The notes beneath the pieces were generated by a model. That model was not told the origin of the DNA. It worked only from the letters and a program-made list of their open reading frames with translations, and made no database searches. DNA of 64,000 nt, from NCBI RefSeq assembly GCF_003790525.1, contig NZ_CP033635.1; one strand, 5' to 3'. The stretch is from Escherichia coli (lineage in GTDB: Bacteria; Pseudomonadota; Gammaproteobacteria; Enterobacterales; Enterobacteriaceae). Made by a program: the position numbers and the translations under genes. Shown here piece after piece: positions 38,901-39,265 of this stretch; within the stretch, counting starts at the first letter, position 1, and each line of letters opens with the position of its first letter.

Positions 38901-39265
38901 ACCATAGACAACATGAATATTAATGTTACTATCTGGTTGAGACTGTTGATAAAACGTAAAAAGGAATGCTCTGTTCCTGCAACTGAACAGGCGTGAAACG
39001 CTATCCAACAGGATGGATACCGTTTTGTCAGCCAGTTTTATAGATCACACTTATGAGTATGCGTGTTTCATTTACGGCCAGGAATGCTGATGATGACAAC
39101 ATTACTACCCGTTTTCACTAAGCCTTCCCCATTGGCGCTCAATGCTCTGCGCGCTGGTCGTATTTGCCGTTTCCTTCTTATCCCGGATGGAAGAATCCGC
39201 TGAACGTCGTTCGGCGGCAGTTGTAACACGCGTCGTTTGCTTACAGGGATTATGGCGGGTCGATT

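Follow-up and report, generated by a model that had tools for sequence, protein, structure and literature searches.

The classical attenuators trpL, hisL and pheL are ribosome-mediated and operate through intrinsic terminators. In tnaC-tnaAB and speFL-speF, a translated leader open reading frame (ORF) is followed by Rho-dependent termination right after its stop codon; arrest residues have been mapped in TnaC and SpeFL, which sense tryptophan or ornithine, and the Rho utilization (rut)/boxA site of tnaC adjoins the stop codon. Here we examined yhiY, a 37-codon ORF in the 5' region of the yhiI-rbbA-yhhJ operon of Escherichia coli, and compared it with these systems. The window, i.e., the whole stretch of 64,000 nucleotides (nt) that was analysed (RefSeq assembly GCF_003790525.1, contig NZ_CP033635.1), carries yhiY at positions 39090-39203 on its + strand, as it does all features located below. 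We conclude with moderate confidence that yhiY is the upstream ORF (uORF) of a conserved structured leader, which controls Rho-dependent premature termination before yhiI-rbbA-yhhJ.

The closest characterised system is mdtU (ydgV)-mdtJI of E. coli (Adams et al. 2021, PMC7815308), from the laboratories that also studied yhiY. Both mdtU and yhiY were validated in the screen of Weaver et al., lie in a long 5' untranslated region (UTR), and stop tens of nucleotides before the main ORF (106 nt for mdtU and 62 nt for yhiY). In both, a Rho-dependent RNA 3' end is found past the uORF, a reporter is up in rhoR66S (PMC7815308), and peptide conservation is strongest at the C-terminus. However, the inducer spermidine is known for mdtU and a start-codon mutant abolishes its induction, neither of which exists for yhiY. 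The MdtU peptide has been reported to be conserved in at least 17 genera (PMC7815308), whereas the YhiY peptide occurs only in Escherichia and a few neighbouring taxa, and the yhiY leader is instead most strongly conserved in its initiation region and carries a bracketing long-range helix. With tnaC and speFL, yhiY has in common a translated leader ORF, Rho-dependent termination right after the stop codon, and a proposed control in which the ribosome stays at the ORF end or does not. Unlike tnaC, the rut-like region of yhiY is located inside the ORF, and no arrest or ligand is known. The resemblance to trpL, hisL and pheL is limited to a short leader ORF before an operon, with RNA hairpins near its end. 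A trpL-type attenuator was rejected for yhiY, which has no repeated regulatory codon, no U-tract, an intrinsic-terminator score of 2.14 (<3) and a bicyclomycin-sensitive 3' end.

The ORF itself is readily recognised. A Shine-Dalgarno sequence (SD), AGGAA at 39080-39084, precedes ATG ATG at 39090-39095, with 6 bases between AGGA and ATG, and the frame from 39090 stays open for 37 codons, encodes MMTTLLPVFTKPSPLALNALRAGRICRFLLIPDGRIR and ends with TGA at 39201-39203. These features agree exactly with a preliminary description made from the sequence, and its placement of the ORF 5' of yhiI-rbbA-yhhJ was also borne out: yhiY occupies the 365-nt yhiJ-yhiI intergenic region and stops 62 nt 5' of the yhiI ATG (39266) on the same strand. 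The coordinates match exactly those of the RefSeq coding sequence yhiY ('protein YhiY', WP_001296785.1), the protein is identical, and residues 1-37 of 37 match the Pfam family PF23514 'YhiY' (E = 6e-30; 103.1 bits, cut-off 27); YhiY is not covered by any NCBIfam model. The intergenic region is 100% identical to that of E. coli strain SMS-3-5. The 114-nt ORF was found in single copy and at ≥95% identity in 5412 of 5426 complete E. coli genomes, and all sampled E. coli records except one bear the label yhiY.

Translation of yhiY has been demonstrated by others. Weaver et al. (bioRxiv 10.1101/511675) detected it as ORF9/yhiY by ribosome profiling with Onc112 and retapamulin. Three AUGs are in frame (39084, 39090 and 39093), and the start mapped with the two inhibitors is the second, i.e., 39090 (bioRxiv 10.1101/511675); the ribosome occupancy that the preliminary description had asked for is thus already documented by initiation-complex profiling. 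Native YhiY was seen by top-down, data-independent acquisition and parallel reaction monitoring mass spectrometry at approximately 1000-3000 copies per cell (2025 proteomics, PMC12529367), a study in which the leader peptides TnaC and MgtL were likewise detected. Accordingly, yhiY is a known gene: its name, annotation and validation date back to 2019, it has been proposed in print as a candidate uORF, and as a gene discovery it has no new value.

RNA 3' ends have been mapped next to the yhiY stop codon. Adams et al. (eLife 2021, PMC7815308, Supplementary file 3) reported a Term-seq 3' end at MG1655 position 3630645, 43 nt before the yhiI start, with upstream/downstream coverage of 762/101 without bicyclomycin and 792/351 with bicyclomycin in LB medium at an optical density of 0.4. 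This end received a Rho score of 3.34 ('Yes'), an intrinsic-terminator score of 2.14 (<3), and the tag 'uORF', which was given only where a western blot or reporter fusion had shown synthesis (PMC7815308). A second 3' end, listed in a different part of the table, lies at 3630667, -65 from yhiI (PMC7815308). We mapped both to the window by their distance to the yhiI start, which places them at 39223 and 39201, respectively, the former falling 20 nt past the yhiY stop. The same authors found a yhiI fusion to be more than 2-fold higher in rhoR66S and named yhiY-yhiI among candidate uORF-dependent regulators (PMC7815308). Hence, as shown by others, about 87% of transcripts end at or just past the yhiY stop in LB, and this termination is relieved by bicyclomycin and rhoR66S. 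In addition, overproduction of CspD leads to higher expression of 'the operon associated with yhiY' (2022 mBio, PMC9765468).

For a comparative view, the regions upstream of YhiI-orthologue loci were compared using one genome per species, which yielded a 23-taxon alignment; 48 distinct leader variants carrying the core pattern were taken from a metagenome scan as an extra sample. The most conserved element is a near-invariant 46-nt core (39059-39104) that comprises the 5' strand of a predicted helix (helix A), the SD, AUGAUG and the first five codons. The core has 0-5 mismatches in every Enterobacteriaceae locus and is not detectable (>12 mismatches) in Hafnia, Proteus, Providencia, Morganella or beyond. 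In helix A, predicted by RNAalifold, 39059-39070 (AUGCGUGUU.CA) pairs with 39222-39233 (UG.AACACGCGU), so that the helix brackets the whole yhiY ORF. Its 8-bp centre and the C39069-G39223 pair are intact in all sequences of the 23-taxon alignment, where 94% of the cells of helix A are paired. The variable positions of the 3' strand in these taxa are all opposite U and exchange only A and G, and a compensatory change from U-A to C-G occurs in three Pseudocitrobacter sequences. The metagenomic variants retain 8-9 of the 9 helix A pairs, including a new C-to-U change that preserves a G-U pair, and in all 48 the distance from the end of the 3' strand to the yhiI AUG is 31-32 nt. Helix A even survives the loss of most of the ORF in Kluyvera. 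A second predicted helix, helix B, pairs 39076-39082 (GGCCAGG, containing the yhiY SD) with 39153-39159 (GCUGGUC, an anti-SD in codons 22-24). The two helices are jointly paired in 91.6% of cells, compared with 30-52% in slid controls. Support for helix B is weak, with 87.7% of cells paired, one-sided changes only, and breaks at two positions in Klebsiella.

All Enterobacteriaceae taxa share the AUGAUG at which the ORF opens, but the length, sequence and sometimes the frame of the ORF vary. It has 37 codons in Escherichia and 45 in Citrobacter amalonaticus, Pseudocitrobacter and Salmonella, with only MMTTLLP.F and F[LP]LIP[DE]G in common. The ORF of the C. freundii group has 46 codons, with the C-terminal block in a different frame and a UAG stop in the loop of the stop-codon hairpin described below, and that of Escherichia sp. 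E1V33 is frameshifted (45 codons). In Klebsiella, Raoultella and Enterobacter, 73-98 unrelated codons overlap yhiI out of frame, whereas only 15 codons remain in one metagenomic type and 3-4 in Kluyvera types. The YhiY peptide is therefore not conserved across Enterobacteriaceae; the nucleotide elements are. The MMTTLLP and FLLIPDG blocks lie in different frames in the C. freundii group and in Escherichia sp. E1V33, and in the former the sole AUG that opens the FLLIPDG frame is an upstream one without an obvious SD (a 57-codon ORF). We also considered a 22-codon ORF in an alternative frame, MSMRVSFTARNADDDNITTRFH (39053-39121), as the conserved product. It was rejected because inspection showed no well-spaced SD and because the published start-site mapping favours the yhiY frame too; changes between genera in this frame are 4 non-synonymous versus 2 synonymous, and MSMRVSFTARNADDDNITTRFH seems conserved only because it overlies the invariant nucleotide core. 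The comparative picture of a variable peptide, an invariant initiation module and a fixed-distance helix is the sole point that is possibly new, as we did not find it in the searchable literature or in Rfam.

Polymorphism within Escherichia was analysed in 23 distinct alleles from 80 loci. The stretch 39059-39122, which covers the core and codons 1-11, has only 0.03 variant sites per nt (2 sites), compared with 0.58 for codons 12-22, 0.21 from codon 23 to the stop, and 0.26 in the 3' leader. Codons 1-11 are invariant, synonymous sites included. Codons 14-22 are neutral, with 12 non-synonymous and 5 synonymous changes (ratio of non-synonymous to synonymous polymorphism, pN/pS, 1.07), whereas codons 23-37 show 3 non-synonymous and 7 synonymous changes (pN/pS 0.15, binomial P = 0.0044), as expected under purifying selection; all 7 synonymous changes are at third positions. 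Based on this pattern, constraint in the Escherichia lineage acts on the nucleotides at the N-terminus and on the amino acids at the C-terminus. Salmonella, Pseudocitrobacter and C. amalonaticus retain the C-terminal motif; the C. freundii group has it out of frame, and Klebsiella and Kluyvera lack it. Three rare disrupted alleles were also noted. An IS1A insertion in E. coli E423 (NZ_CM173464.1) removes the first 16 nt of yhiY, the SD and the promoter, and rbbA has an internal stop and is a pseudogene in this strain, so that the locus looks decayed. In one metagenome contig of E. coli type, R35 is changed to a stop codon, leaving a 34-residue product, and in two others an 8-nt insertion near codon 33 generates a 63-codon ORF that overlaps the yhiI start by 8 nt.

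The body and the end of the ORF carry further elements. A C-rich, G-poor, rut-like stretch extends over 39095-39180 inside yhiY: 78-nt windows centred at 39105-39165 contain 28-33% C and 17-24% G (C/G up to 1.86) and form the sole such stretch of the leader, in contrast to the G-rich 5' end of yhiI (38-47%). The C/G ratio is 1.2-2.05 across the equivalent ORF region in all 23 taxa although the sequences diverge. The region thus qualifies as rut-like by composition, and Rho binding to it is putative. A 9-bp hairpin (39197-39217), found by folding and independently by RNAalifold, holds the yhiY stop codon in its 5' arm. It is conserved in the Escherichia-Citrobacter-Salmonella group, with 96.3% of cells paired compared with 10-45% in slid controls; two pairs are changed on both sides, and the covariation is weak, as 36 of 500 shuffles reach the observed score. 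The hairpin has no U-tract and is followed by CAGUUGUAAC. An intrinsic-terminator scan of the leader found no terminator-like site, and a role of this hairpin as an intrinsic terminator was rejected on these grounds together with the published score of 2.14 (<3). A further RNAalifold element, hairpin C (UUUCC.UCU / GGA.GGAAG, 39170-39193), spans codons 27-35 around the invariant centre AUCCCGGA; this block is kept as nucleotides even in the C. freundii group, despite the different frame of AUGAUG there.

These observations can be combined in a model of translation-coupled attenuation. Ribosomes translating yhiY would mask the rut-like region and hold the body of the ORF single-stranded, and helix A would form in this ribosome-occupied state. 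If ribosomes were absent or released, Rho could load on the ORF RNA and terminate transcription before yhiI. In Escherichia and Salmonella, a signal may act through the conserved C-terminus beside the stop codon to influence ribosome release or stalling, a mechanism proposed for mdtU and demonstrated for speFL and tnaC. The locus has the arrangement expected of an attenuator, a translated ORF inside the 5' UTR of an operon, its position being established here and its translation in the literature. When the ORF is constrained to be unpaired, as it would be under ribosomes, helix A becomes part of the preferred minimum free energy (MFE) fold of the E. coli leader. Among the roles named in the preliminary description, that of a leader peptide is the best supported, by the Rho-dependent 3' end, the rhoR66S effect and the comparative data; the literature searched contained no experiment in which the yhiY start or stop was mutated and yhiI measured.

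Several further points weigh against the model. The published link between yhiY and yhiI as a uORF is a positional association. Moreover, most transcripts terminate at yhiY in LB even though it is well translated in this medium; translation alone is therefore insufficient for read-through, which must also involve stalling or queuing or some other factor. The ORFs of 4 codons in Kluyvera and 15 codons in one metagenomic type imply that masking of the rut-like region by elongating ribosomes is not family-wide. Helix A is absent from the single-sequence MFE structure of E. coli, costs approximately 6.8 kcal/mol, and has an equilibrium probability of about zero in naked RNA. Its covariation amounts to one truly compensatory pair plus G-U/A-U exchanges, and the pair counts come from the same sequences from which the structure was derived. 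The conserved part of the leader is also thermodynamically no more stable than shuffled sequences (z from -0.3 to +1.95). Finally, the approximately 1000-3000 copies of YhiY per cell and the purifying selection on its C-terminus fit a trans-acting protein as well.

We therefore weighed other explanations against the attenuator model. YhiY might mainly be a free small protein that acts in trans, as a partner or modulator of YhiI-RbbA-YhhJ or of the ribosome, its leader position only ensuring co-expression. Its abundance in mass spectrometry, the pN/pS of 0.15 over the 15 C-terminal codons within Escherichia, the F[LP]LIP[DE]G motif being in frame in C. amalonaticus, Pseudocitrobacter and Salmonella, and a Pfam family of its own (PF23514) all argue for such a protein. 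However, TnaC and MgtL were seen in the same mass spectrometry study, so that detection is no argument for a role in trans. Outside the clade formed by these taxa and Escherichia only MMTT[LF] is conserved, the C. freundii group and Escherichia sp. E1V33 carry the N- and C-terminal blocks in separate frames, and the ORF shrinks to 4 or 15 codons in some taxa or encodes an unrelated 73-98 residues in Klebsiella, which has the same operon. The invariance of codons 1-11 at synonymous sites points to a constraint at the nucleotide level. Like AcrZ, YhiY is a protein of at most 50 residues associated with a transporter system, but AcrZ is a conserved single transmembrane helix, whereas no transmembrane segment is predicted in YhiY, and its conservation does not follow that of the pump across genera. 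An AcrZ-like membrane peptide was rejected, the maximal 19-residue Kyte-Doolittle mean being 0.99, the grand average of hydropathy 0.49 and the isoelectric point 11.8. Nor does anything tie the peptide to a ribosome-associated activity of RbbA, which the preliminary description had suggested that a small protein might regulate. Overall, we consider a main function in trans unlikely.

Alternatively, the RNA itself or a factor bound to it could be the functional unit, the core and helix A serving as a site or switch for a small RNA, an RNA-binding protein or a ligand, with yhiY translation as a by-product of a strong SD-AUG. The nucleotide-level invariance of 39059-39122, the retention of helix A even with a 4-codon ORF, and the presentation of the SD in the loop of a small hairpin in MFE folds are consistent with this explanation. 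It is nevertheless improbable in our assessment: an ORF with the same start is present in every taxon and, in most of them, runs on for 37-98 codons in spite of indels and shifts of frame, the structure is no more stable than shuffles, and neither an Rfam family match nor a candidate factor was identified. As for yhiY being a chance ORF without function, which the preliminary description had allowed, sequence statistics alone do make the ORF only slightly unusual: 87 of 2000 (4.4%) dinucleotide shuffles of the 365-nt intergenic region contained an ATG ORF of 37 or more codons behind an SD, and ORFs of similar length overlap yhiY on both strands. The case for yhiY is built instead on annotation, published experiments and conservation. 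Initiation profiling at the 39090 AUG, tagging and mass spectrometry refute the chance ORF, and its retention in 5412 of 5426 E. coli genomes and the ultra-conserved initiation region across genera speak against it too, which makes it extremely improbable. Returning to the attenuator model, we also considered a broader form, in which an Enterobacteriaceae-wide cis-regulatory leader RNA combines the invariant uORF initiation module, the fixed-distance bracketing helix and the composition-conserved rut, and in which ribosome loading rather than the peptide decides between termination and expression. We put this forward only tentatively, as a possible but doubtful extension.

The remaining parts of the leader were also characterised. 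A consensus scan predicted a sigma-70-type promoter for the yhiY-yhiI-rbbA-yhhJ transcript at 38905-38932 (-35 TAGACA, 16-nt spacer, extended -10 TGnTACTAT), and the pattern TAGACA-16-TGnTA[GC]TAT is kept upstream of the leader in 23 of 23 aligned Enterobacteriaceae. The forward primer of a 'yhiI 5' UTR + ORF' clone begins at window position 38939 (Adams et al. 2021, PMC7815308). From this primer start and the promoter position (7 nt past the -10 hexamer), we infer a transcription start site at about 38939 for the K-12/SMS-3-5 type allele. A polymorphic segment of about 104 nt (38933-39036), which folds into a long stem, separates the -10 hexamer from the conserved leader. Of 5426 E. coli genomes, 4282 carry this segment in single copy, and it is missing from B2 strains (such as Nissle), cryptic Escherichia, E. 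albertii, Citrobacter, Salmonella, Klebsiella and all other taxa examined; a mobile repeat was rejected, there being one copy per genome. The inferred start site falls inside this segment, so that the mRNA of K-12-type strains would have a structured 5' extension of about 100 nt. The full UTR has a z of -1.94, seemingly due mostly to the long stem of this segment.

At the other end of the leader, the translation-initiation region of yhiI, ACAGGGAUUAUGGCGGGUCGAUU (39243-39265), shows little or no variation in Escherichia, Citrobacter and Salmonella. The E. coli MFE structure pairs the ORF body (~39130-39175) with the yhiI ribosome-binding site. We do not propose a function for this pairing, which lies outside the consensus fold and involves the hypervariable middle of the ORF. 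The small hairpin with the yhiY SD in its loop belongs to the MFE structures of Escherichia and Citrobacter but not of Klebsiella, and shows no covariation. ACAGGGAU (39243-39250), just 5' of the yhiI ribosome-binding site, and CAGGAAU (39079-39085), which falls in the loop of this small hairpin, resemble GGA-type CsrA sites and are candidates only. A search of 38600-39600 on both strands with the covariance models of Rfam 15 gave no match at E up to 1.

The operon begins with yhiI (39266-40333), which encodes an HlyD-family periplasmic adaptor and is the first gene after the leader. It is followed by rbbA (40330-43065), a fused ABC ATPase/permease gene that overlaps the yhiI stop (both from the ORF list and RefSeq), and by yhhJ, an ABC permease gene; the three share one strand, and adjacent genes overlap at their stops and starts. 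In SMS-3-5, two adjacent DUF4049-domain genes, yhiJ and a paralogue (window 37278-38900 and upstream), precede the leader, and a hicAB toxin-antitoxin pair directly follows yhhJ (NC_010498.1), with hicA annotated as frameshifted. In about 1100 E. coli genomes, the sequence upstream of ~39034-39048 is replaced.

The YhiI-RbbA-YhhJ system is poorly understood. Claims on RbbA as a ribosome factor call for caution, because a key article on RbbA-YhjD and ribosome association, published in PLoS One in 2011 (PMC3083400), has been retracted (2025 notice, PMC12169533). If the leader is indeed a translation-coupled Rho attenuator with the conserved architecture outlined above, it would offer a concrete way to search for the signal that turns on yhiI-rbbA-yhhJ, and yhiY would be another 'small protein' that is primarily a regulatory uORF. 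If, moreover, the Enterobacteriaceae-wide leader proved real, the leader would report translational capacity or translation-targeting stress, and the arrest-type C-terminus would be a lineage-specific addition in Escherichia and Salmonella.

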